A stretch of DNA of 64,000 nt from Syntrophales bacterium (GCA_030655775.1 JAUSPI010000213.1:263-64262), one strand, 5' to 3'. Numbered from the stretch's first letter, positions 210 to 18,351 are shown. Program-made: numbers and translations. Notes: generated from the letters alone by a model not told the origin.

Positions 210-329
210 TTATCGTTTGACGATTGAGGATCTCGGAAAGCATTAACAAAGAAAACAATTTCTAAAGAATTAAATTAGCGACGTATAACCAATAAGGATT
301 GATGAGACCTGGAAGGTCGCATTCAATCC

Positions 330-786
330 TTTGTTCAAGAAGCCGCGGGCTAACCATATATAGGGTAATGCTTCGCAGGGGATGTTCGGGAGGTGGAGAA
401 AATCAGGAAGCTATTGGGGAGTCGGGAGGGGATTTTCAAATCCGTCCATGAAATCAGCATCACCTCTCATGTAAAATTGCCTTTATTGGATTGGTTTTAG
501 GGCTTATATTTTCGGTTTGGGCGCACTACTCCATTGCCCCTTTCAGGGTATTCTGCGGGAAGAAGCAATGGAGGAAGAAGCTTGGTCAAGTTGGCCCTCT
601 GCATGGCCTGTTCGGGATGAGACTGAAAAGATAGAGCAGGAAACCGCCGCAGGCCGGGCAGATGGGCTTTGGCAATTCGGGTTTCGGTTTTATTGCTGAC
701 AAGTCGGTGAGACAGAGTCGGATATTCTGCAGGCCGGCAAGAATAAGGAGCCGGAGGCGAGCAAGAGAGACGGAGGTGTCTTTCCG
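330..786 (-). mobile_element. IS91-family remnant (transposase C-terminus plus probable oriIS end)
   Basis: Minus strand 786->586 reads RKDTSVSLARLRLLILAGLQNIRLCLTDL...KPICPACGGFLLYLFSLIPNRPCRGPT*, with the CPxCGG and terminal RGP typical of IS91 transposase C-termini. A GCGGCTTCTTGAAC end-like motif lies near 330-347. Confidence 0.45.
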
Positions 787-1082: not shown

Positions 1083-1146
1083 GGGGGACACCTTACTTAA
1101 TTCTCAGTTATTTTTTCAGCTCGTTGCATAATTAAGTAAGGTGTCC
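1083..1146. repeat. REP/REPIN-like palindrome, interrupted by the group II intron
   Basis: Perfect 17-bp inverted repeat GGACACCTTACTTAATT (1086-1102) / AATTAAGTAAGGTGTCC (1130-1146). It shares the GGGGACACC core with copies at 3538, 3751 and 5792. Confidence 0.75.
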
Positions 1147-1943
1147 GTACGCAGTAACAACTGTTTTATCTTGCGGGTTAAAGTCCCGTCCGGGGAATTG
1201 TCCGATTCGCCCCGGTAGTTCAAGGGAGCGGCGTCTTGGCAACAAGGGGTCGTAAGTTTCCAATTGGCAAAGCAGCAGGCCGTAACGAAAGTGAACCTAC
1301 ACGTAGCCTCGTCAAACTAAGTTGGAGATGCCGACCCTGTGGACACAAGGGGAAGGCCGATGTGCGAAGGCAGAGATAACGGATGTGGCCTGAGCGATCT
1401 TTCGGGGTAGCAGGGGTGGCATGTTGCGGAAGATAAACAGTCCAGTGCTGGAGACCCGATATGGTGATGATTGAGGAATATCAACTGGCGCGTATAAGGC
1501 GACGAAATCGCGGCGGGCTGTATCGGGAGTCGGAGGGGTTCATAGTACCGTTTGAGGGCATGGGACAACATAACCCTGCCCGAGGGAAGGGACCCTACTT
1601 TGTTCATGCAACCGAAGAGTGGAGGGTGATGAAGATTGCCGAATGGCTATTCACTTTGTAATATCACCAGGACACGATGGAGGAAGCTCTATTGTCAGGC
1701 CAAGTAGAGAACGCTGGTACTCGGCGGGTCTCCTCAACCCACTTAATGCTGGGGTACAGCGAGTGCTATGCATGCCTTGCGATGAAGAACATCGGAAAGC
1801 CGTGTGCGGGAAAATCGCATGCACGGTTTGATGAGGGAGGATTGGCAAGGCAACTATGGTGCGGCTATTTAGGCACTGCCAGACGAAAGGGGCAGAAACA
1901 GATAAGCCAGCCTAAAGCGGTCATTGCCAGTTCTCTACTCTAC
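1147..1943 (+). mobile_element. ORF-less (RT-deleted) group II intron, IIB-like
   Basis: 5' end GTACG. EBS1 loop GGACAC at 1341-1346 pairs 6/6 with the 5' exon end GTGTCC (1141-1146). Domain V AAGCCGTGTGCGGGAAAATCGCATGCACGGTTT at 1797-1829 has an AGC triad. A long domain VI ends ...CTCTACTCTAC at 1943. RT remnants: RKLYCQAK (1681-1704) and HALR* (1771-1785). Confidence 0.88.
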
Positions 1944-1969
1944 CTGGAATTGCCAGGAATTGCTGGAAT

Positions 1970-2031
1970 TCTATGAGTAGGATGCTCATTCCGCTGCGCT
2001 TCATTCGCACCTCTCAAGCTGGGCGTTAGCT
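1970..2031 (+). other. Partial attC site (left R'' end lost) preceding katA
   Basis: ATGAGTAGGATGC...GCACCTCTCAAG imperfect stem with unpaired bases on the left arm, ending GGGC-GTTAGCT (core-like site at 2025-2031). Confidence 0.55.
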
Positions 2032-2063
2032 GAACGAAAACAATAAACAAAAGGAGAACAAAA

Positions 2064-3539
2064 ATGAAAGACGACAAGAAAAAACTCACCACGAACGCCG
2101 GGGCTCCGGTACCGGACAACCAGAACGTCATGACCGCCGGCCCTCGCGGACCACAGCTGCTGCAGGATGTCTGGTATCTGGAAAAAATGGCCCATTTCGA
2201 CCGTGAGGTTATTCCGGAACGGCGAATGCACGCCAAGGGCTCCGGGGCCTACGGCACCTTTACCGTAACCCACGACATCACCAAGTACACCCGCGCCAAG
2301 ATCTTTTCCAAGATCGGCAAGAAAACCGAGATGTTCGCGCGCTTTTCCACCGTGGCCGGAGAACGCGGTGCTGCCGACGCCGAACGCGACATCCGTGGTT
2401 TTGCGCTTAAATTCTACACCGAGGAGGGCAACTGGGATTTGGTGGGCAATAACACGCCTGTCTTCTTTCTCCGCGACCCGCTCAAATTTCCGGATCTCAA
2501 CCATGTCGTCCATCGCGACCCTCGCACCAACCTGCGCAGCGCCAAAAACAACTGGGATTTCTGGACATCCCTGCCCGAGGCATTGCATCAGGTGACCGTG
2601 GTCATGAGTGACCGCGGCATCCCGGGAAGCTTCCGCAACATGCACGGGTTCGGCAGCCACACCTTCAGCTTCATCAACGCCAAAAACGAGCGCTACTGGT
2701 GCAAGTTCCACTTCCGCACCCAACAGGGCATCAAAAACCTCACCGATGCGGAGGCTGAGGCTGTGATCGGCAAATGCCGTGAGAGCAATCAACGCGACCT
2801 CTACTACTCCATAGAGAAAGGCGATTTCCCGCGCTGGACCCTGTACGTCCAGATCATGACCGAAGAGCAGGCCGCCAAGCTCCCCTACAATCCTTTTGAC
2901 CTGACCAAGGTTTGGTACAAAAAGGATTACCCCCTTATCGAGGTGGGAGTCATGGAACTTAACAAGAACCCGGAAAACTACTTTGCCGAGGTGGAGCAGG
3001 CGGCCTTCAATCCGGCCAATGTGGTGCCGGGCATCAGCTTCTCACCCGACAAGATGCTCCAGGGCAGGCTCTTCTCCTACGGCGACACCCAGCGTTACCG
3101 GTTGGGGGTCAACCATCACCTGATCCCGGTGAACAAGGCCCGCTGCCCCTTCCACAGTTATCACCGCGACGGCCAGATGCGGGTGGACGGTAACTATGGC
3201 TCAACCCTTGGCTATGAGCCCAACAGCTATGGTGAGTGGCAGGAACAGCCCGATTTCTCCGAGCCGCCTCTGGCACTGAGCGGGGCCGCGGCCCACTGGA
3301 ACGCCCGCGAGGATGACAGCGATTACTATACCCAGCCGGGCAAGCTCTTTCACCTGATGAGTAAAGAGCAACAGGAGGCCCTGTTCGGCAACACCGCCCG
3401 GGCCATGGACGATGCGCCGGAGATGATCAAAATCCGCCACATCGGCAACTGCCTGAAGGCCGACCCGGCCTACGGCGAAGGGGTGGCCAAGGCCCTGAGT
3501 ATCCCGCTGAGCAAGGTGCCGAAGCAGGCAATTGGGTAA
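2064..3539 (+). CDS. katA: Monofunctional heme catalase (small subunit, clade 3 type)
   Basis: Active-site [17 protein letters not shown], proximal heme [18 protein letters not shown]; RBS AGGAG. Visibly GC-richer than the core genes. Confidence 0.97.
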
Positions 3540-3626
3540 TCTGGGGACACCATATTAGTTTAATCTTCGAACGCGGCAATATTTTAGAAAACTGAATAAA
3601 TAAATAGGGGCACTTCCCTATTTATT
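3538..3626. repeat. REPIN copy (left arm and core) fused to a second palindrome
   Basis: AATCTGGGGACACCATATTAGTTTAATCTTCGAACGCGG..., near-identical to 3751 and 5792. The right arm is replaced by AATAAATAGGG/CCCTATTTATT (3599-3626). Confidence 0.8.
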
Positions 3627-3659
3627 GACGATGGCCATCAATAGGCATATACATAGCGC

Positions 3660-3752
3660 ATGCCAAGAATAGCACGCGTTACATCACCCGGCTATCCTCA
3701 TCATATTACTCAGCGCGGGAACAATCGTGAAGATGTCTTTTTTAAAGGGTAA
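3660..3752 (+). pseudogene. N-terminal fragment of a REP-associated tyrosine transposase (RAYT, Y1_Tnp)
   Basis: Own translation MPRIARVTSPGYPHHITQRGNNREDVFFKG*. The HHITQRGNNR motif is typical of RAYT N-termini. The stop overlaps the start of the REPIN at 3751. Confidence 0.8.
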
Positions 3753-3825
3753 TCTGGGGACACCATATTAGTTTAATCTTCGAACGCGGTAATATTTTAG
3801 AAAACTGGTATGGCGTCCCCCGATT
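3751..3825. repeat. REPIN copy (75 bp)
   Basis: AATCTGGGGACACCA ... TGGCGTCCCCCGATT imperfect terminal inverted repeat around the shared core. Confidence 0.85.
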
Positions 3826-3854
3826 TTGACATATGAAATAATAGGAGATGAAAA

Positions 3855-4580
3855 ATGGACACAGCACTCATCACGATTGGGATAGGCATTGTTTTGGGGG
3901 TTGCAGGATCAATTATAGTAAAGAAGGCCTTCGGCAAGAAAGATTCTGGCGAGGGCACAAAACAACACCAGATCTATGCCTTTGTGGAAAATATGAAATC
4001 TGTGGGTGAGCTGGTGGTGTTTAAGGCATTTACAAAAGAGATCGTCACAACGGCTGATCACTGGCTTGGCAAAGTGGGAAAGAAGTATCTTACCTGGCTG
4101 ATGTCCAATATGAAGATGGCCATGATTTTTCAGTTCGAAATAAATTTCTGGTATGACCTGAAAAGCCATGATTTTAGAGTGATGGATGCGGGCCAGGGCA
4201 GGTTCATGATAACAATGCCAAAGTGCTTGTATGACATTAATATAAAAGATATCAGCTTTTATGATGAACAGAGTGCCAAGCTGTTGGACTGGCTATTGCC
4301 ACCTCTTATTAGCAGAGTTTTCTCAAAAGATTTTACTGAAGAGGATAAGAACAGGTTAAAAGACGAGGCAAAGACGCAGGCCTCTTCTATGGCAAATCAA
4401 CTGATCAAGCAGTTAAGCTCAGAGATTGAAAAATCTGCAAGGCAAACCATGGAGATGCTGGCAAAGAGTTTTGGTGCGGAATCCGTTGTATTGGACTTCA
4501 GCGAGTCCCAGTTAATGGAAAAAGGGGTTACCGACCTTTCCCGACAGCCGACTGAGCAATCCACCGCGCCTCTCCAATAA
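3855..4580 (+). CDS. DUF4230-like membrane-anchored protein
   Basis: N-terminal transmembrane helix, then MKSVGELVVFK...EINFWYDLK...ITMPKC, the family-like pattern; RBS AGGAG. Confidence 0.7.
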   Translation: MDTALITIGIGIVLGVAGSIIVKKAFGKKDSGEGTKQHQIYAFVENMKSVGELVVFKAFTKEIVTTADHWLGKVGKKYLTWLMSNMKMAMIFQFEINFWYDLKSHDFRVMDAGQGRFMITMPKCLYDINIKDISFYDEQSAKLLDWLLPPLISRVFSKDFTEEDKNRLKDEAKTQASSMANQLIKQLSSEIEKSARQTMEMLAKSFGAESVVLDFSESQLMEKGVTDLSRQPTEQSTAPLQ

Positions 4581-4655
4581 CAAGAGATGATAGGTTATAA
4601 CCAATTCTGAAAAAGTGGGGCGGGAGCCCCCACGCCGGTTAAGAAAGGAAATATT

Positions 4656-5732
4656 ATGAAGAAGTTGATTTTACTTATTAGTATTTTATTGTTAACGCCC
4701 TGTACTAGCATGGCAACAGATAAAAATAACATTCTCGCTTGGCCCGACAATCTCCCAGTCTATGATCATATTGTCATTGTCGTTGAAGAAAACAAAGATT
4801 ATGAGGAGGTAATAGGTCAAGAATACGCGCCTTACATAAATGATGTTCTGAAAAAGGAGGGAGCTAATTTCATAAAAATATTCGGAGAAGAACACTTTAG
4901 CCAGGGGAATTATTACTGGTTATTTTCCGGTGACAATCAAAACGTAGGTTTTACCGACCAGGTGCCTAATAAAACTATTAATTCATCGTATCCGTTTACC
5001 ACCAGTAATCTTGGTTATCAATTAATAAAAAAAGGATTTTCGTTCAAAGGTTACTCGGAAAGCTTGCCCGCTATCGGCAGCACAGTTGCAAAACATGGGG
5101 TTTACGCGCGGAAGCATGTTCCCTGGATAAGTTTTGCGAATGTTCCTAATGGCCCAACAATCGAGACATCATCTAATCTGAGATGGAAAGATTTCCCCTC
5201 GCCTTCTGAATACGACAAACTTCCAACAGTTTCATTTGTCATTCCCAACCTTGATAACGATATGCATAACTGTTATCCGCCTAACTGTAGTCCAGGGTCA
5301 CAAGAAGAAATGATGAAGTGCTGTATAAAAAAGGGGGATGACTGGCTGAAAGAGAATATTGGCCCTTACTATCAATGGTCAAAGAAGAATAATAGTTTGC
5401 TTATTCTTACCTTTGACGAAAATGATGATAAGAGAGGTTATCTGGGGTTAACAAATCCAATGATTAAATCGGAGAAAATTTTTTGTGATAGCTCAAAAAT
5501 TGATCCTGAATACTGTGAGGATCTGGAAAATAAAATAGTCACTATTTTCGCGGGTGCGCATATAAAGCCAGGTGATTACCCGGAAGGCAAAGGAATTACG
5601 CATATTAATATTTTGCGAACTTTAGAGGCTATGTATGGATTGCCTAAGTCAGGTAAACAGCAGCCTAACGCGGCAGGATACGGCATAAGTGATGATTACA
5701 TAATAACTGATGTGTTTGAGACGGTGCGATAG
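4656..5732 (+). CDS. Secreted acid phosphatase, phosphoesterase family (SapM/AcpA-like)
   Basis: Signal peptide; DHIVIVVEENK, YARKHVPW, LPTVSFVIPNLDNDMH, LLILTFDEND motifs. Confidence 0.85.
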   Translation: MKKLILLISILLLTPCTSMATDKNNILAWPDNLPVYDHIVIVVEENKDYEEVIGQEYAPYINDVLKKEGANFIKIFGEEHFSQGNYYWLFSGDNQNVGFTDQVPNKTINSSYPFTTSNLGYQLIKKGFSFKGYSESLPAIGSTVAKHGVYARKHVPWISFANVPNGPTIETSSNLRWKDFPSPSEYDKLPTVSFVIPNLDNDMHNCYPPNCSPGSQEEMMKCCIKKGDDWLKENIGPYYQWSKKNNSLLILTFDENDDKRGYLGLTNPMIKSEKIFCDSSKIDPEYCEDLENKIVTIFAGAHIKPGDYPEGKGITHINILRTLEAMYGLPKSGKQQPNAAGYGISDDYIITDVFETVR

Positions 5733-5791
5733 AATGAATACAGTTCAGTCCTTTACCCGCAATGCTGGCTTTTCCAAGGCGCCGACTCAAT

Positions 5792-5866
5792 AATCCGGGG
5801 ACACCACAATAGTTTAATCTTCGAACGCGGCAATATTTTAGACAACGGGTATGGTGTCCCCGGATT
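5792..5866. repeat. REPIN copy (75 bp)
   Basis: Perfect 15-bp inverted repeat AATCCGGGGACACCA / TGGTGTCCCCGGATT with the same internal core as 3751. Confidence 0.88.
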
Positions 5867-5979
5867 TTAAAAAGAAATCATACAAGGACATAACGCTGTG
5901 TAAGAGAACAGAAGGTTTCTCTACAAAAGAGTATGGTTTTGCTATACTTTTCTATTAAACAAAAAGAAGGCGAAAAGAA

Positions 5980-7671
5980 ATGAACCTTTTATCCAAAAGT
6001 GCCCCGCTAGAAGAGTCAATAGCAAAAATGAAAGCAGTTTTAGCAGACGTTGGATGCGAAACTACTCTTTCGGATGAAAAGCATCCGCTGGAGCATTGTT
6101 ACTCTGTGAATCTCGTTTCGGTTGAAGCACCAGGTCATATCTATTCCAACGGAAAAGGGATTGTATCGGACGCATCGATGGCGAGTGCATTGGGTGAGTA
6201 TATTGAACGGCTCCAGACCAATACCTTTTTTATCGATTTTCACCTGCCAAATCGAAAGTATTATCCTGACGAAGTCGCCTTTGAGTTTGGCGGAGCATAT
6301 CTAAACGATGAACTACGCTTAGTGTATGATCCTGATGGAGAGCTCACGGATGAAGACCTTGTTGATTACAGTAGTGATTATGAGGATAAGATCGTTGCAC
6401 TGCCTTTTACGAAACGATCGAGTGGGGATACTGTATATATTCCGGTTAATATTTTGAGCAATCTCTACGTCAGTAACGGTCTGGCAACGGGAAATACGCC
6501 ACAGGAAGCACAGGTGCAAGCGCTAAGTGAGATTTTCGAGCGTTATGCCAAAATAGAGATCATCAAAAACGGTTATGCCCTTCCTAAATACCCCGATGAA
6601 ATTGTTCAATCCTTTGATCGACTGCATAGTGATGTTTTGGCGCTGCGGGAGTCAGGATACATCGTAGAGGTTCTTGATGCGTCATTAGGGGGAAAATACC
6701 CCGTCACCGCTATCTCTTTGATCAGTCCGGAGAACTCTTCTCTTATTGTCTCCTTTGGTGCGCATCCAATTTTAGAAGTCTCGCTTGAGCGGACGATGGC
6801 AGAATTGATGCAAGGTCGCGAATTGGAAAATCTGGATGCCTTTGAAGTCCCGACCTTTGACATGAGCATTGTCTCGGACAGTTCTAATCTTGAGTCGCAT
6901 TTTCTTGACTCTAATGGAAAGTCAGGATTTGGATTTTTAAGTTCTGCAAAAAGTTTTGAATATGCATCGTGGAGCTATCAGGGCGAGGGACGCGAAGCAG
7001 AATACAACTACCTGACTGATATTCTTGACAACATGGGCAAAGAGATGTTTCTGCGAGAATACAGCTATCTTGGATTCTATTCTTGCCAGATGATCGTTCC
7101 TGGTGTTTCTGAAGTCTACCCTATTGAGGACTTGATCTACAATAATAGAAACACCGGCAAATTGATCCGAAATATGGTTTTACATTTTGAGGAGTATGAT
7201 CCTCAGGAGATTATAGACACTATTGATTCTCTGGATGATTCAATCAATATCGAAAACTATATCGGTGTTATTTTCGAGAACAGTTTCACCATGCTTGAAT
7301 TTAAAGCGCAAATGCATCTCATTCTTGGTAACACAGATGAGGCTCTGGCATCCTTGGAATTTGGGACTAATAAGCTGGGACATATTGTCGCGGAATTGAT
7401 CCGAATGGACGAAGAAAAGTTGGTTTGGGAAGAGTACGAAGAGGCTCTGTTTAACATCTTTGGACGAGAAAGAGTCGAAAAAGCCTTGCGTATAGTAAAA
7501 GGTGAAGAGTTCCTGGTAGATACAACACTTCATAGTGACTATCACAATATGCTTGAAATGTATGACAGGCTAGAGCGTAAAAAACAAGCTGCCCTTGTTA
7601 GGCAGGGGAATAAAAACCGCCGGGAGTCCATCAATCCGGAAGGTCAGGGGAAATCTCCGTTTTCCCCTTGA
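5980..7671 (+). CDS. ycaO: Stand-alone YcaO-family protein (E. coli YcaO type), probably with a chimeric C-terminal extension
   Basis: SKSAPLEESIAKM, YSNGKG..ASMASALGEYIERL, SNGLATGNT...QALSEIFERY and FGAHP..EVSLERT motifs align with the YcaO family. Confidence 0.88.
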   Translation: MNLLSKSAPLEESIAKMKAVLADVGCETTLSDEKHPLEHCYSVNLVSVEAPGHIYSNGKGIVSDASMASALGEYIERLQTNTFFIDFHLPNRKYYPDEVAFEFGGAYLNDELRLVYDPDGELTDEDLVDYSSDYEDKIVALPFTKRSSGDTVYIPVNILSNLYVSNGLATGNTPQEAQVQALSEIFERYAKIEIIKNGYALPKYPDEIVQSFDRLHSDVLALRESGYIVEVLDASLGGKYPVTAISLISPENSSLIVSFGAHPILEVSLERTMAELMQGRELENLDAFEVPTFDMSIVSDSSNLESHFLDSNGKSGFGFLSSAKSFEYASWSYQGEGREAEYNYLTDILDNMGKEMFLREYSYLGFYSCQMIVPGVSEVYPIEDLIYNNRNTGKLIRNMVLHFEEYDPQEIIDTIDSLDDSINIENYIGVIFENSFTMLEFKAQMHLILGNTDEALASLEFGTNKLGHIVAELIRMDEEKLVWEEYEEALFNIFGRERVEKALRIVKGEEFLVDTTLHSDYHNMLEMYDRLERKKQAALVRQGNKNRRESINPEGQGKSPFSP

Positions 7672-7726
7672 CAAAACTTATCATGGATGTCCCCTTATTT
7701 TCATTATGCATAAAATAAATTAAAAG

Positions 7727-8197
7727 ATGATAGCCCGAATAGAGACTATTGACGAAATTAAACCGATTTTTAAAGAGTATTTGGCTTATGTGAGTCAGTT
7801 TTTCGCAATTGCTGATTATGATTCGTGGTGTGAAGGCGCACTGAAGCATTTACAGCTATATCCGATTAAAAATGATCGGCACATTTACATTATAAAGGAA
7901 TCAGAATCTATAATCGGCTTTGCCTTCGTCAATAAACACTTACGGTTCAATAATGATGGCTTCGCAGTTGCAGAGTTTTATATTCAAAAAGATCATGAGA
8001 GAAAAGGTTATGGTCGTAGGTTGGCTGAACATGTATTTGCACAGTTCCCCGGTAATTGGGAAGTTGCCGTCACATTAAAAAATAATTCAGCCCGAGTGTT
8101 TTGGAAACAGGTGGTGTCATCTTACACACATTATAAATTTATAGAAAAAAGGAAATCTTCCTTTAGCGGATATGGCTTCCTATTCAACAATGCATAA
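7727..8197 (+). CDS. GNAT-family N-acetyltransferase (cassette-like)
   Basis: IIGFAFV...VAEFYIQKDHERKGYGRRLAEHVF acetyl-CoA motif and ARVFW. Preceded by GTTAGGC (7597-7603); the stop lies inside GCATAAC (8192-8198). Confidence 0.88.
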   Translation: MIARIETIDEIKPIFKEYLAYVSQFFAIADYDSWCEGALKHLQLYPIKNDRHIYIIKESESIIGFAFVNKHLRFNNDGFAVAEFYIQKDHERKGYGRRLAEHVFAQFPGNWEVAVTLKNNSARVFWKQVVSSYTHYKFIEKRKSSFSGYGFLFNNA

Positions 8198-8230
8198 CAC
8201 ATATGAGCCGCACCTTTGTCAATAGGTGAG

Positions 8231-8383
8231 TAATTGGGGACGGGTTCACATTCTTTTGATGTTTTTTACAATATTCGCCTATATTCATATTTGATGGTTT
8301 TATTTGGTGTATGGCGAACCTATAAAAGTCGATATTGCAAGTGCTTGATAGAAATCGCTAAAATGTGAACCCGTCCCCAATTA
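8231..8383. repeat. REPIN-like element (second GGGGAC subfamily)
   Basis: Perfect 22-bp inverted repeat TAATTGGGGACGGGTTCACATT (8231-8252) / AATGTGAACCCGTCCCCAATTA (8362-8383). Confidence 0.8.
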
Positions 8384-8397
8384 TAATACTCAATTAT

Positions 8398-8435
8398 AGG
8401 AGGAGGAGAGTCGCGAGGCTCCTCCCTATCCCGGT
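8398..8435 (+). other. Possible domain VI / 3' end remnant of a class C group II intron
   Basis: GGAG-GAGAGTC-GCGA-GGCTC-CTCC-CTATCCCG: GNRA-capped stem plus a CCCTATCCCG end, followed by TGGAC. No domain V upstream (REPIN there instead). Confidence 0.4.
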
Positions 8436-8458
8436 TGGACGCATAAGACTATTCATGA

Positions 8459-8487
8459 TTGACAAAAATAAGCAGCAGTATTATTAT
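8459..8487 (+). promoter_or_regulatory. Sigma70-type promoter of the AbrB/VapC TA operon
   Basis: TTGACA (8459-8464), 17 nt, TATTAT (8482-8487). A CAGTATTA direct repeat overlapping it may be an operator. Confidence 0.6.
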
Positions 8488-8519
8488 TACCAGTATTACA
8501 TATTACTGGAGGTGCAATC

Positions 8520-8747
8520 ATGAGAGTTACCACAAAAGGACAAGTCACAATTCCACAAGAAATTCGGGAAAAATTAGGAATAACTCCTGCTGTTGAAGTT
8601 GATTTTGTAGAAGAGAACGACCGAATTTATTTGGTGAAAAGGAAAGGCGAACCCAAAAAAACATATAAATTCAGGAAATTGAGGGGAATAGCCAACGTTA
8701 AAATGACAACTGATGAAATAATGGCTCTGACAAGGGGAGACGAATGA
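8520..8747 (+). CDS. AbrB/MazE/SpoVT-family antitoxin (VapB-like)
   Basis: MRVTTKGQVTIPQEIREKLGI swapped-hairpin signature; overlaps the toxin start (ATGA). Confidence 0.92.
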   Translation: MRVTTKGQVTIPQEIREKLGITPAVEVDFVEENDRIYLVKRKGEPKKTYKFRKLRGIANVKMTTDEIMALTRGDE

Positions 8748-9148
8748 AAGGGGTTCTCGTTGATTCGAATATTGTTTTGGATGTTTTTCTGAATGATCCG
8801 AAATGGGCTGATTGGTCTGAATCAAAACTGGACGAGTATGATCAATTGGGGATCTTGTATATCAACTCGATCGTCTATTCTGAAATCTCCATTGGTTTTG
8901 AGCGGATAGAAGATCTGGAATTTGCAATAGTCAAAGCTGGTCTCCAGATGTTGGAAATCCCCAAAGAGGCATTGTTTTTAGCCGGGAAAATTTACCTTAA
9001 ATACAAAAAAAGAAAGGGCACAAAAAGGACTCCGCTCCCGGATTTTTATATTGGAGCACAAGCCGCCGTCCAGAATTTGGATTTAATTACGAGAGATGTT
9101 TCTAGATATCAATCGTATTTTCCAACTGTTAAATTGATAACTCCATAA
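8744..9148 (+). CDS. vapC: PIN-domain toxin (VapC family)
   Basis: VLVDSNIVLD, YSEI, LPDFYIGAQA, LITRD PIN motifs. Confidence 0.92.
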   Translation: MKGVLVDSNIVLDVFLNDPKWADWSESKLDEYDQLGILYINSIVYSEISIGFERIEDLEFAIVKAGLQMLEIPKEALFLAGKIYLKYKKRKGTKRTPLPDFYIGAQAAVQNLDLITRDVSRYQSYFPTVKLITP

Positions 9149-9352
9149 GATTTAGTCTCTCAGCATCGAACCAGGCAACCACTTTGAATAAAAGCAAGAA
9201 AGGATACGGCCAGCGTTCGTTGAGGCAAGGGGGGACGTCCCCATGTCTGCCACTCCACCCGGTAGGTTACTTTATCATTAGCTGTCATAAGACTACTGTG
9301 GGAAAGAGAATATTATTGCCAAACAGTCCCTGATTATTGTATTATATGAAAT

Positions 9353-9673
9353 ATGAATGAGACATTCGAGAGAGTTCTGAGACTGATTGAACGTAAGGAA
9401 GTTGTGATATCCGACCATGGTTATGATGAGCTTGCGGAAGACAACATTTTCGTCAGGGATATCATGGCAGGAGTTCCGGACGCATTAGTTATAGAAGATT
9501 ATCCGGACTATCCGAAATGTCCATGTATATTGGTATTACTGAAAGATCGTTTTGATAACCCGATACACGTGGTTTGGGGAATTCCCAAGGGCGCTTCTTC
9601 ACCAGCCGTTTTGGTTACTGCTTACAGGCCTGATGCCGATCGGTGGACAGTAGATTTTCTGAGGAGGATATAA
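9353..9673 (+). CDS. DUF4258-family protein (putative RelE-like toxin); probably leaderless
   Basis: [12 protein letters not shown]...[16 protein letters not shown]...PIHVVWG...[13 protein letters not shown]; no clear RBS. Confidence 0.8.
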
Positions 9674-9888
9674 TGAAAAAAAGACGACGTACAAAGCTCG
9701 TGCACGAAGGACAATATGTTGCCGAGGTTGATGTAGAATTGATCGATATGAATAAAGGATGGTCCCCTTATTTATCTCTTGATGATGCATACAAGCTGGA
9801 TGATATTCGCAATGCATTGCGGCTGGGTGACGTTAAGAGTGCGGCGCGACTTGGTCGCATTTTCACTCTCACTCCTATCGCTGTATAG
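9673..9888 (+). CDS. Small uncharacterised partner of DUF4258 (putative antitoxin)
   Basis: TAATG stop/start overlap and RBS GAGGAGG give [23 protein letters not shown]...WSPYLSLDDAYKLDD. The track start at 9643 is likely too early. Confidence 0.75.
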   Translation: MKKRRRTKLVHEGQYVAEVDVELIDMNKGWSPYLSLDDAYKLDDIRNALRLGDVKSAARLGRIFTLTPIAV

Positions 9889-9897
9889 TGACTTACT

Positions 9898-10035
9898 GGA
9901 GAACAAGCGGATCAACTCTGACTGAAAAAGCCATGCCATTTTTAGATTTCTACTCATTTCATCGTTTATAATTACTTCTTCACTTTTAAACATCTTTTTA
10001 CTTTCTTTTTCAGCAGGTTATCCGTGTCGTTAACT
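9898..10035 (+). other. Complete attC site (138 bp)
   Basis: R''-like GGAGAAC. Left arm CGGATCAACTCTGACTGAAAAAG pairs with right arm CTTTTTCAGCAGGTTATCCG, leaving three unpaired left-arm bases (C, T, A). Ends in GTTAACT (10029-10035). Confidence 0.8.
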
Positions 10036-10055
10036 GTCTATAACGGAGTCTGAAC

Positions 10056-10712
10056 ATGATTCGCAAATCTTTTTCAGTATTTCTTATCTTTGGCTTTTTC
10101 GTGCCGTTATTGATCTTTGGCCCAATGACGTTGCATGCAGATGCAACAAACCCATCAACTTCCCTGGACAAATTAGAAAAAAGAATCGCATCATTCAAAC
10201 CTGATCCGACGTATAGGGACGACACAAAGCTGCATTGGTCACTTTGCGGGAAGCCGTGGCCGCCGCTAAAGAAGGGAACTACGGAATTGGCGCATGCCTC
10301 GTCAATGAAAAAACCGGAGAAGTTATTCAGCGAGGGCACAACCGCATATTCAGCCCGTATTTCCGAAGCGATCTACACGCGGAAATGGATACACTTACCG
10401 GCTATGAACAGAGAGTCAGTCAACGCACAAACTCCAAAAGTAGAGGGACTGGTTTTATACACTTCGCTTGAGCCCTGCCCTATGTGTCTGGCCCGAATTA
10501 TTACCGCTGGAGTGCGAAAGGTATATTATTTGGCTCCAGATCCTTACGGTGGCATGGTTCATCTTTTCAAGAATCTTCCTCCGATCTGGCAGAAAATCGC
10601 TGAGGGAAGAATATATGAGCCAGCCCTATGTTCCCCGGAGCTCAAAGACATCGCAAATAAGGTTTTCAAGTACTCATCTGAAATGTTGGATGAAAGGTTG
10701 AAAAAAGAATAA
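10056..10712 (+). pseudogene. Signal-peptide-bearing nucleoside/cytidine deaminase (TadA/GuaD-like fold) with two compensating frameshifts
   Basis: PCPMC (10473-10487) is in the 10056 frame, but the HAE zinc motif (10376-10384) and GNYGIGACLV lie in the 10235-10471 frame. Confidence 0.75.
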
Positions 10713-10714
10713 AC

Positions 10715-10908
10715 AGCTAACCCGTCACTCAACCCGACTTGCGGTACACGACGTGCGCAAAATTCAGAGCCGGCAGGTGGCAAAACCTGTAACAATTTCT
10801 GCCTGAACGCATTGGAAAAAGCGCTTTTTCACTCTAATTGTTCAAAGGGGTCCACTTCAGATCGCAAACAGCGAGGCTTTAAAAAGTCGGTGAATCCAAA
10901 CGTTAAAC
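10715..10908 (+). other. Long or chimeric attC site (194 bp)
   Basis: AGCTAAC just after the deaminase stop; CTCAACCCGACT pairs with AGTCGGTGAA; ends in GTTAAAC (10902-10908) before the next gene. Confidence 0.55.
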
Positions 10909-10935
10909 AAAAAATGCATCAATGGGAGAGAGAAA

Positions 10936-11310
10936 ATGTTGTCTGTAAAAATTGACGAAGCAAGTGGTATAGCTATACTCGAACCGGATGGAGCGTTATC
11001 AAAAACCGATTTTCAGTCGGCCGCCGCAATTATCGATCCTTTTATAGAGAAAGAGGGTCGGTTAAATGGGGTCATAATTCACACAGCCTCCTTTCCAGGC
11101 TGGGATTCGTTCGCCGCATTATTTACTCATCTCACATTTGTGAAAGACCATCACAAAAAAGTGTCCCGTGTTGCATTTGTAACGGATTCAGTGGTTGGAA
11201 ATTTTGCTGCAGCAGTCGGCGGTCACTTTATAAATGCGGAAGTCAAGGTATTTCCCTTTCAAGAGCTGGGAAAAGCTACGTTGTGGATTACAGGGGATGT
11301 CGTGGATTAA
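10936..11310 (+). CDS. STAS/SEC14 domain (SpoIIAA-like) protein
   Basis: LEPDGALSKTDF...FPGWDSFAALFTHLTFVKDHHKKVSRVAFVTD family pattern. Confidence 0.85.
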   Translation: MLSVKIDEASGIAILEPDGALSKTDFQSAAAIIDPFIEKEGRLNGVIIHTASFPGWDSFAALFTHLTFVKDHHKKVSRVAFVTDSVVGNFAAAVGGHFINAEVKVFPFQELGKATLWITGDVVD

Positions 11311-11352
11311 TTTGTCTGACAAATTACTCAAATGGATCGGAATGTCAAATAA

Positions 11353-11583
11353 GTCGCTCCGGCTGGCGCGGAAAAGGCCGGGTGTGGAAAATTCGAAAAA
11401 TTATACATGAAAAACAGACAGTCTCCTGCCGAAGCCGCAGAATATAAATCACAAATACGGAGACAAATATCCGAGTCGGGATATCAAATTATCGTAAACA
11501 TTGGAGATCAATTGAGTGATTTAGGCGGAGGATATTCAGAAAAAACATTCAAACTGCCCAATCACATTTATTTTATAAAATGA
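11353..11583 (+). pseudogene. C-terminal fragment of a HAD subfamily IIIB (class B-type) acid phosphatase
   Basis: Own translation ...EKAGCGKFEKLYMK...[47 protein letters not shown]. The GDQxSD...FKLPN motif is present; the N-terminal DxDxT part is missing. Confidence 0.8.
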
Positions 11584-12337
11584 CTTGCAGCCCCTTTTTC
11601 TGTAGATATTCCTTGACCTCCCTGATGCTGAAAATACGATAGTGAAAGACAGATGCTGCTAATAAAATCTGTGCGCCACCCTTAACAACACCCTCATAAA
11701 AATGCTCCAGTTTTCCTGCACCGCCCGAGGCGATCACCGGCAGGTCTACAGCATCTGAAATAGCTTTCGTGAATTCCAGATCATATCCGGCTTGGGTCCC
11801 ATCACCATCCATGCTGGTTGGCAGAATGGCGCCGGCGCCAAGTTCCTGACACTGTGTGGCCCAGGCCACAGCATCTTTGCCTACTGGTTTGGTGCCTCCT
11901 GAGACAACCAGCTCAAATCCGGATGGCATCTCCCTATTCCTTCTGGCATCGACAGCTACAAGTATATTTTCTGAACCGAAAGTTTTTGCGGCTTGCCTGA
12001 CAAGCTCCGGATCCTTGACAGCAGCGCTATTCATGGAAACTTTATCAGCACCGGCGTTAAAAACCATTTCAATGTCTTCCAGAGAGGAAATGCCGCCGCC
12101 CATCGTCAACGGAATGGTTATAACCGATGAAACACTTTTAACCCATTCCAGCCTGCTCTTTCGGTTTTCTAACGTTGCAGCTATATCTAAAATGGCCAGC
12201 TCATCAGCCCCTTCCTTTTCATAAAAGGCGGCATTTTCCACAGGATCACCTGCATCTTTCAAGTCTACAAAATGTATGCCCTTGACTACGCGTCCATCTT
12301 TCATGTCAAGGCAAGGCATGATTTTTATTGTACTCAT
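11573..12337 (-). CDS. hisF: Imidazole glycerol phosphate synthase cyclase subunit
   Basis: [44 protein letters not shown]. Start MSTIKI at 12337 with RBS AGGAAG. Confidence 0.95.
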
Positions 12338-12442
12338 ATACTTCCTTTCTCCGACATATTGCAGCCGTATTAGTTTGTTTTCAACATGAGCGGGATAAAC
12401 CACATTTTCTGCTCGATTCAGTTTTACAGATAGAGAAAGACT

Positions 12443-17421: not shown

Positions 17422-18351
17422 ATGAGAAGAAAGGTTTCTGTTATCGGATCTGGTTTTGTCGGTACCATGGTTGCTCAGAGAATAGCAGAGAAGAATCTGG
17501 CAGATGTTGTCATTGTTGATATTATAGAAGGGCTTCCTCAGGGTAAGGCCCTTGATATCTCACAATCAGCATCGCTTGAAGGGATTGATGTTAAAATAAC
17601 AGGCACAAATGACTTTTCTGAGATAAAAAATTCTCGGATTATTGTGGTTACAGCAGGGCTTGCCCGAACACCCGGAATGACCCGCGAGGAACTGGCCGGA
17701 AAAAACGGAAATATCATAAAATCGGTAACGGAGCAGATAAAAGAACATGCTCCCGAATGCATTATTATTGTGGTTACAAATCCGCTTGATGTCATGACCC
17801 AGCTTGCCTGGAAGGTTTCAGGATTTCCTGCACGGAGGGTCGTTGGCATGGGGGGAATTCTCGACACGGCGAGATATAAGTTATTTCTGGCCGAGGAGCT
17901 GAATGTGTCAATAAGAGATATTCAGGCCCTTGTGCTGGGAGGTCATGGGGATGCAATGGTGCCGGTTGAAAAATATACAACACTAAACGGCATTCCAATC
18001 AGCGGGCTTATAAAACCCGAAAGGCTGCAGGCCATTATTGAAAGAACAAAAAACGGCGGGGCCGAGATCATCAAGCTCCTGAAAACTGGCAGTGCCTGGC
18101 ATGCCCCCTCTTCTTCCGTCATAGTGATGGTGGAAGCGATACTTATGGACAGCAAGAGAATGCTTCCCGCAGCGGTCTATCTCGAAGGTGAGTACGGTAT
18201 AGATGGTATTTATATTGGTGCCCCGATAACGTTGGGTGCAGCGGGTGTAGAGGAAATACATGAAATAGACCTTCCTGACGATGAATTGGCCGCCCTCAGC
18301 CTGTCAGCGGATGTTGTAAAGAAAACATTTGAAAGTTTGAATGTTCTATGA
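17422..18351 (+). CDS. mdh: Malate dehydrogenase (LDH-like, NAD-dependent)
   Basis: VIGSGFVG, TAGLARTPGMTR, VVTNPLD, LDTAR, LGGHGD. Confidence 0.95.
   Translation: MRRKVSVIGSGFVGTMVAQRIAEKNLADVVIVDIIEGLPQGKALDISQSASLEGIDVKITGTNDFSEIKNSRIIVVTAGLARTPGMTREELAGKNGNIIKSVTEQIKEHAPECIIIVVTNPLDVMTQLAWKVSGFPARRVVGMGGILDTARYKLFLAEELNVSIRDIQALVLGGHGDAMVPVEKYTTLNGIPISGLIKPERLQAIIERTKNGGAEIIKLLKTGSAWHAPSSSVIVMVEAILMDSKRMLPAAVYLEGEYGIDGIYIGAPITLGAAGVEEIHEIDLPDDELAALSLSADVVKKTFESLNVL

Follow-up and report, generated by a model that had tools for sequence, protein, structure and literature searches.

The stretch studied here is a window of 64,000 nucleotides from a Syntrophales bacterium, uncultured and of the sulfate-reducer type (GCA_030655775.1, JAUSPI010000213.1:263-64262). 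It belongs to contig C217 of a metagenome-assembled genome (276 contigs, 3 Mb), of which 262 bp lie to the left of the window. We conclude that the part from the left contig end to a hisF-like gene at 11573-12403 is probably a mosaic accessory locus made up largely of integron gene cassettes, which have become detached from their integrase and are losing their recombination sites (attC). It is a cassette remnant of the SALIN/CALIN type and an example of a known, fairly ordinary structure: by the IntegronFinder definitions a CALIN is a set of clustered attCs without an integron integrase, and a SALIN is a single attC lacking an integrase (PMC4889954; PMC9024848; bioRxiv 10.1101/2022.09.11.507474). 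A preliminary description of this DNA had proposed an eroding CALIN-like array. Its integron origin, the lack of a nearby integrase and the decay all stood, but only one site was significant, and because the usual criterion for a CALIN is at least two attCs, the locus is formally a SALIN. The sites detected with two covariance models (R1 and R2) and with half-site matrices were as follows.

9895-10038, plus strand: intact attC, with R'' GGAGAAC at 9898-9904 and R' GTTAACT at 10029-10035 (R2 42.8 bits, E 6.8e-8)
10712-10911, plus strand: decayed or hybrid attC of 200 bp, with R'' AGCTAAC at 10715-10721, L'' at 10728-10738, L' at about 10887-10894 and R' GTTAAAC at 10903-10909
1974-2034, plus strand: attC remnant without R'', with L'' at 1974-1984, L' at 2008-2016 and R' GTTAGCT at 2023-2029; the catalase cassette begins at 2024
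9162-9224, plus strand: weak attC-like site after vapC, not significant (R1 11.2 bits, E 0.52; R2 7.1 bits, E 4.9)

When R2 was run with filters off on both strands of the 64 kb, the only strong match was 9895-10038, and the runner-up was a trivial 21-bp palindrome of 9.9 bits. This site has the features by which attCs are recognized: its R'' ends in AAC, its R' begins with GTT, L'' and L' are paired, and there are extrahelical bases. In the bottom-strand fold, 9908-9930 paired with 10005-10023 and three single bases bulged from the stem (top-strand C9913, T9917 and A9921), so that the complete attC with three extrahelical bases, placed earlier at 9898-10035, was recovered in full. Over the whole genome R2 found 26 sites, forming arrays on C61 (8 sites), C151, C157, C150 and C93, and on C217 only 9895-10038. 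A homolog of the site is present in another genome (G005:C145). In cold-seep and sediment runs, depth reached 750-1200 over 9897-10037 versus 15-30 on the flanks, and therefore this attC type is common to many cassettes; the DUF4258 module together with its attC is highly repeated in the same kinds of metagenome. The DUF4258 toxin-antitoxin pair, which directly precedes the site, keeps a fully canonical attC.

It is practically impossible, in our view, that the attC-like features arose as palindromes by chance in AT-rich spacers and have no link to integrons. A crude scan for complementary arms does reach similar scores at a rate of roughly one per 10 kb within the core part of the window, and the fold of 9895-10038 is no more stable than that of shuffled sequences (z = -1.05), an unremarkable stability that arises because the 70-nt loop is AT-rich. 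However, the site reaches 42.8 bits with R2 (E about 1e-7) and lies on the same strand as the genes, nothing better than 13.6 bits was found in 81 kb of hisF flanks from congeners, two half-sites of the locus rank first and sixth genome-wide, and homologs of 9895-10038 lie inside cassette arrays of other genomes and metagenomes. The chance reading was rejected on the R2 score, the scan of the congener flanks and the half-site ranks.

The models were built as follows. Rfam contains no attC family, and its matches in the window were tRNAs and group II intron domains only. As a source of attCs, 80 loci around relatives of the integron integrase (IntI) on contig C93 were fetched, and candidates upstream of intI were picked with the crude arm-complementarity scan; such candidates were about 8-fold enriched upstream versus downstream of intI. 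Two procedures were abandoned. A simple scan for AAC...GTT with complementary arms gave a signal inseparable from noise, scores of at least 23 turning up roughly once in every 10 kb of the window's core part, and a MAFFT alignment of full-length attCs yielded no consensus structure, so loops were trimmed and the structure was supplied by hand. With 37 trimmed sites aligned on this hand-drawn R''-L''-L'-R' structure, 67.5% of cells were paired versus 53% after shuffling, and covariation was clear. Model R1, made from the 37-site alignment, drew on two C93 sites and otherwise only on sites that lie upstream of intI in other genomes. On 44 intI loci it found 91 sites, and since 89 of the 91 were on the strand that intI predicts and many of the 91 had been absent from the seed, the model and its strand sense were taken as validated. 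On the window R1 gave nothing significant, because it penalised the long loop of 9895-10038. R2 was rebuilt from the 91 sites, and no window sequence entered R1 or R2. From the same 91-site alignment we derived ungapped half-site matrices (5' half: flank, R'' and L''; 3' half: L', R' and flank) with which the whole genome was scored. The 3' half-site matrix also gave 20.1 bits at 17660-17689 (minus strand) in the core region, a probable false positive that illustrates how limited the specificity of this matrix is.

The damaged sites were judged with these matrices. At 10712-10911 the 5' half (10712-10738) scored 24.7 bits, the top value in the genome, and the next eight were all inside R2 attCs; the 3' half (10882-10911) scored 9.5 bits with 0.86 expected. 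The site fails as a significant whole and as a foldable palindrome, its 5' half alone being strong, and it is a decayed or hybrid attC. The long attC described earlier at 10715-10908 was hence half right: its 5' end is the best in the genome, but its 3' half is weak and the whole scores 6.7 bits and is unfolded. The preliminary description had held that its reading would fall if an attC covariance model gave no hit at the intact or the long site; with the home-made R2 the former was strong and the latter reached only the 6.7 bits just given. Before the catalase gene, the 3' half at 2005-2034 scored 21.6 bits, rank 6 in the 3-Mb genome with 0.02 expected in the stretch, and R2 gave a partial match of 6.2 bits at 1974-2016 (L''-L' only). 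What had been reported as a "half attC" at 1970-2031 is a genuine 3' half standing immediately ahead of the catalase, which is probably a former cassette. All weak R2 matches in the first 11.7 kb (9162-9224, 10712-10911 and 1974-2016) were on the plus strand in spacers after genes, and none was individually significant. By the test for a CALIN (at least two attCs on one strand, less than 4 kb apart), the locus offers one significant site, a decayed neighbour 674 bp downstream and farther half-sites.

The deaminase cassette between the two largest sites starts at the R' crossover of 9895-10038 and ends in the decayed 200-bp site. Contigs of the probable source sample (X1, from groundwater) in Logan reproduced 8197-11700 without difference, and an independent subsurface sample (X2) contained identical pieces of the locus. 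In a variant contig of X2 the match to the deaminase cassette began only at 10027, at the R' crossover, and the 1.1 kb upstream of it was unrelated. The unit 10030-10903 thus behaves as a cassette at its 5' boundary (the X2 contig ends before the 3' boundary), which agrees with the core pair GTTAACT 10029 / AGCTAAC 10715 proposed around this gene. Compared with an intact homolog in the congener G002 and with metagenome variants, the deaminase gene carries two indels (+2 nt near 10222 and +4 nt near 10414), whose compensating frameshifts scramble about 190 nt including the catalytic HAE motif and put HAE out of frame; the 218-aa open reading frame (ORF) is still open and keeps the signal peptide and a PCxxC motif. 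The frameshifted sequence was identical in two assemblies of the source reads. Judged from these differences, the gene possibly encoded a toxic secreted deaminase that is now disarmed.

The genes of the locus, annotated with Pfam, are listed below.

2064-3539, plus strand: catalase (Catalase 1.4e-190; G+C 55-62% versus about 42% in the surroundings)
3855-4580, plus strand: DUF4230 gene, in a mobile module at 3830-4589 that directly adjoins hisF in the congeners G003 and G004
4656-5732, plus strand: phosphoesterase-family gene, without attC evidence
5980-7671, plus strand: YcaO-family gene, with its native C-terminus replaced from 7598 on
7727-8197, plus strand: GNAT acetyltransferase cassette; R'' GCATAAC (8186-8192) overlaps the stop codon and the remaining attC is lost
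8520-9148, plus strand: VapB (MazE/AbrB-type) and VapC (PIN) toxin-antitoxin pair
9353-9888, plus strand: DUF4258 gene and an 81-aa partner, the toxin-antitoxin-type cassette that owns the intact attC
10056-10712, plus strand: deaminase cassette, secreted-type
10936-11310, plus strand: SpoIIAA-like (STAS) gene
11407-11583, plus strand: class B acid phosphatase, a 58-aa C-terminal fragment and pseudogene remnant (Acid_phosphat_B profile positions 175-229 of 230)
11573-12403, minus strand: hisF-like gene, conserved and bounding the variable locus on the right (92-93% identity in congeners)

All sizeable ORFs in 2064-11310 are on the plus strand, 11 of 11 genes share the orientation of the attC top strand, and two toxin-antitoxin pairs were found by Pfam; the ORF and Pfam results agree with the co-oriented genes and interspersed toxin-antitoxin pairs noted before. 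To the right of the locus lie minus-strand genes (hisF-like, OmpA/TPR and recA). Only this right flank is core: the DUF4412-like gene at the left has no ortholog in congeners. The acid phosphatase remnant is wedged against the hisF stop, and an X2 contig is without 11377-11568. Two hisF-like genes, only 46% identical, are present in the genome (11573-12403 and C205:810-1565), and the copy at the locus border is the one conserved beside recA across the genus.

Comparison with congeners supplied intact states of several modules. The hisF ortholog occurs in four genomes of the same genus at 92-93% identity, and each differs, and the contigs break, just past its 3' end. The order of modules beside hisF varies among the four congeners: in G004 it is GNAT, two other genes, STAS, DUF4230 and then hisF; in G003, DUF4230 and then hisF; in G002, STAS and then hisF, while elsewhere G002 has VapBC, a YwbE-like gene, YcaO and GNAT in that order. 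The shared GNAT module begins at about 7679 and its homology stops exactly after GCATAAC (8186-8192). The G002 GNAT ortholog has an attC of 22.4 bits starting with the same heptamer GCATAAC, and after the GNAT of G004 only GCATAAC-AAA-GTTATGT remains. On this comparison, GCATAAC at 8186-8192 is a genuine R'' and the sole part of the attC that survives at the GNAT of the window. The core pair proposed around GNAT therefore kept only this member: its partner GTTAGGC at 7597 was rejected as a core site, its letters being the start of a repeat of about 106 bp which replaces the end of YcaO, and no attC lies upstream of it, that region being YcaO coding sequence whose native end survives in congeners. 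As for the degenerate GTCTGAC reported at 11314 after the STAS gene, it is a degenerate R'' at best. The G003 STAS ortholog stands first, ahead of three canonical cassettes whose attCs score 36-45 bits, G004 has attCs of 35-40 bits downstream of its YcaO and DUF4230 orthologs, and in G005 an attC-like match of 19.1 bits comes after a catalase fragment. Upstream of STAS, cross-genome homology starts at the L' box GGTGAA, and the R' of the window (GTTAAAC) is more canonical than the ATTAAGC found elsewhere.

These comparisons bear on the view that there was never an array, only a generic variable hotspot beside hisF into which the integrase, acting on non-canonical genomic sites, inserted one or a few single cassettes through attC x attG recombination (giving SALINs), the other genes having come by unrelated routes. 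In its favour, only one attC is intact, the other genes are large and not cassette-like, and some breakpoints are linked to REPINs (repetitive extragenic palindromic doublets forming hairpins) and to a miniature inverted-repeat transposable element (MITE). SALINs have moreover been reported to be commoner than CALINs, and experiments have shown that cassettes can be inserted outside att sites (bioRxiv 10.1101/2022.09.11.507474). We consider it unlikely, since two strong half-sites and an orphan R'' are spread over 9 kb on one strand, each at a gene end, orthologs of four modules adjoin canonical attCs in congeners, and shared modules stand in varying order at one and the same hisF locus.

A complete integron has intI, with its characteristic extra domain, adjoining attI and an array. 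A search with TIGR02249 found no integron integrase in the window, as the preliminary description had said, nor anywhere on C217; on the left the search reached as far as the end of the contig, some 10 kb away from the intact attC. No intI is thus present within about 4 kb, as in CALINs and SALINs. The search of the whole genome for intI, which had been advised as well, returned a single intact gene (C93:58118-59068, TIGR02249 446 bits versus a cut-off of 265); to the left of intI on this 84-kb contig, the opposite strand carries a short cassette array, which ends at core genes. A remnant, about 250 bp long, of a second intI was observed at C102:18806-19057, internally deleted so that model positions 1-52 are joined to 284-314, and an IS91-like element stands at the end of that contig about 640 bp after the remnant; C102 may carry a second, dead integron platform.

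In principle the array could be the far end of an integron, complete or recently disabled, with its integrase beyond the left contig end, the separation being an assembly artefact. The contig does end 262 bp left of the window, in an accessory gene without a congener ortholog; C102, with its intI remnant, ends in the same IS91-like element as window 283-375; and the orientation of the attCs puts any attI and intI on the left. But the sole intact intI has its own short array bounded by core genes on an 84-kb contig, no sequence overlap joins C217 to C102 or to any other contig, including those bearing intI, and the intI of C102 is itself a remnant, which would still leave the array without an integrase in cis. 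We therefore hold this to be very unlikely and retain the reading of cassettes detached from their integrase.

Several observations weigh against that reading. Our attC model is home-made and not that of IntegronFinder, and its E-values are rough. One site only is significant as a whole attC; the second best, 10712-10911, has 6.7 bits (E 5.9 in 11.7 kb) and its ends are unpaired in the minimum-energy fold (z = +0.84). Direct attC evidence exists for about 5 of the 11 genes (catalase, GNAT, the DUF4258 pair, deaminase and the SpoIIAA-like gene), and DUF4230, phosphoesterase, YcaO and VapBC are without it in their own genome. Catalase, YcaO and phosphoesterase are large for cassettes. Finally, the junction 5870/5871 is a REPIN-linked gene truncation and not a cassette boundary; processes besides integron recombination have therefore also built the mosaic.

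Mobile elements, overlooked in the preliminary description, account for much of the erosion of the locus. Those found, with related repeats, were the following.

283-289, plus strand: R''-like heptamer GTATAAC, 74 nt past the stop of the left-hand DUF4412-like gene and the insertion point of the IS91-like end
290-375, plus strand: solo terminal hairpin region of an IS91-family element (nhmmer copies in C102, C157, C73, C93, L073, L101 and L107)
1084-1150: REPIN-like hairpin (GGGGACACC...GGTGTCC), immediately upstream of the intron, from direct reading of the sequence and a motif count
1142-1951, plus strand: ORF-less group II intron, a deletion derivative of about 810 nt (Rfam RF02005 at 1180-1417, RF00029 at 1795-1943)
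3540-3829: REPIN pair, with a truncated copy at 3540-3594 and a full copy at 3747-3829
3660-3740: 27-aa N-terminal fragment of a Y1 transposase of the REP-associated (RAYT) type, between the REPIN copies
5791-5870: REPIN, whose insertion or an associated deletion truncates a YwbE-like gene, of which the last 35 nt or so are left (5871-5905)
7598-7705: dispersed repeat of about 106 bp, the source of GTTAGGC (copies in C251, C8, C134 and contigs of G004)
8230-8384: MITE of 155 bp with perfect 21-bp terminal inverted repeats, TA-flanked, 37 bp after the GNAT R''

The hairpin at 283-339 was first taken for a divergent attC, being found inside the C93 array and upstream of the intI of L073; the adjacent gene for a recombinase fused to a Y2 transposase identified it as the end of the IS91-like element, and R2 gave no match over 290-375. 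In the protein that the element encodes, a zinc finger stands between a tyrosine recombinase and the Y2 transposase fused to it. A protein with Phage_integrase, Zn_Tnp_IS91 and Y2_Tnp domains adjoins the element copy in C157 (C157:30307-31923) and in L107, and the recombinase-Y2 transposase gene stands beside the hairpin in C157 and in G005. Each copy abuts a different xxxxAAC heptamer resembling the R'' of an attC; a solo end also lies inside the C93 integron, and copies are at the contig ends of C102 and C73. Contigs of the source sample diverge before position 286.

A full-length copy of the intron (2.0 kb, with an ORF for reverse transcriptase and maturase) was found in G002:C56, and many partial copies occur across the family. 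REPIN-type palindromes (GGGGACACC...GGTGTCCCC) stand at gene ends, and congener homology resumes exactly at their outer edges, 3830 and 5871. Both the GGGGACACC palindromes and a 50-bp element at 4594-4643 were considered as unusual attCs and rejected for want of AAC/GTT ends, box geometry and model score. The native end of YcaO (...GCTGCCCTTTTTCCTCTCGAATAA), seen in G002 and G004, is replaced in the window by the 7598-7705 repeat, which has an internal hairpin (GGGGAAATCTCCGTTTTCCCC) and a TTGACA motif and gives the YcaO ORF an unrelated tail. Two copies of the MITE at 95-96% identity are on one contig of G006, and matches to its terminal repeat were seen at several contig ends of the genome under study.

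We infer the following course. The cassettes would once have been delivered and shuffled by an integron integrase, the genome having the C93 integrase and about 25 further attCs, and recombination would have acted on the bottom strand of attC in its folded form, crossing over at G|TT of R'. The sites may later have been destroyed by point decay, by deletion and by insertion of the IS91-like end (right after an R'' heptamer), REPINs, the MITE and the group II intron, and their loss would have fixed the genes in place. The site at 9895-10038 could still serve the C93 integrase in trans, for example in excision or capture at 10029/10030.

Group IIC-attC introns, the IS91 family and IS200/RAYT-REPIN elements target folded single-stranded hairpins. 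The intron, the IS91-like end and the REPINs of the window resemble them in standing at or beside expected attC positions. Unlike group IIC-attC introns, the window intron shares the orientation of the cassettes and comes after a REPIN-like hairpin instead of an attC stem. At almost every attC that is lost or damaged there is a mobile element, a different one each time: the IS91-like end after an R'' ending in AAC, REPINs at cassette 3' ends, the MITE 37 bp past the GNAT R'' and the intron beside the half attC. Tentatively, and with considerable doubt, we suggest that the decay of attCs is not random and that attCs act as magnets for hairpin-recognising mobile elements, which turn a mobile array into fixed chromosomal genes. 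If this were true, cassettes would be domesticated by a general route, at a landing locus beside hisF shared across the genus.

Set beside known systems, the locus shares with CALINs and SALINs a canonical attC without intI within several kb, an apparently functional intI elsewhere in the genome, and co-oriented, promoterless-looking and functionally unrelated genes including toxin-antitoxin pairs. It differs from CALINs in that it has one significant site, that the neighbours of this site are only halves or single boxes, and that several junctions have been taken by mobile elements. With sedentary chromosomal integrons such as that of C93 it has in common the attC type (R''/L''/L'/R' with bulges), the toxin-antitoxin and defence-like cargo and the IS91-like insertions; in contrast to them it is without an adjacent intI, attI and cassette promoter (Pc), and to judge by their sequences its sites are mostly non-functional.

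The locus leaves the knowledge of integrons unchanged. It adds one documented case, from an uncultured Syntrophales-type anaerobe, of cassettes becoming ordinary chromosomal genes, and with one usable-looking site, neighbours at graded stages of decay and intact states in congeners, it provides a small natural series for the study of attC decay and cassette fixation.

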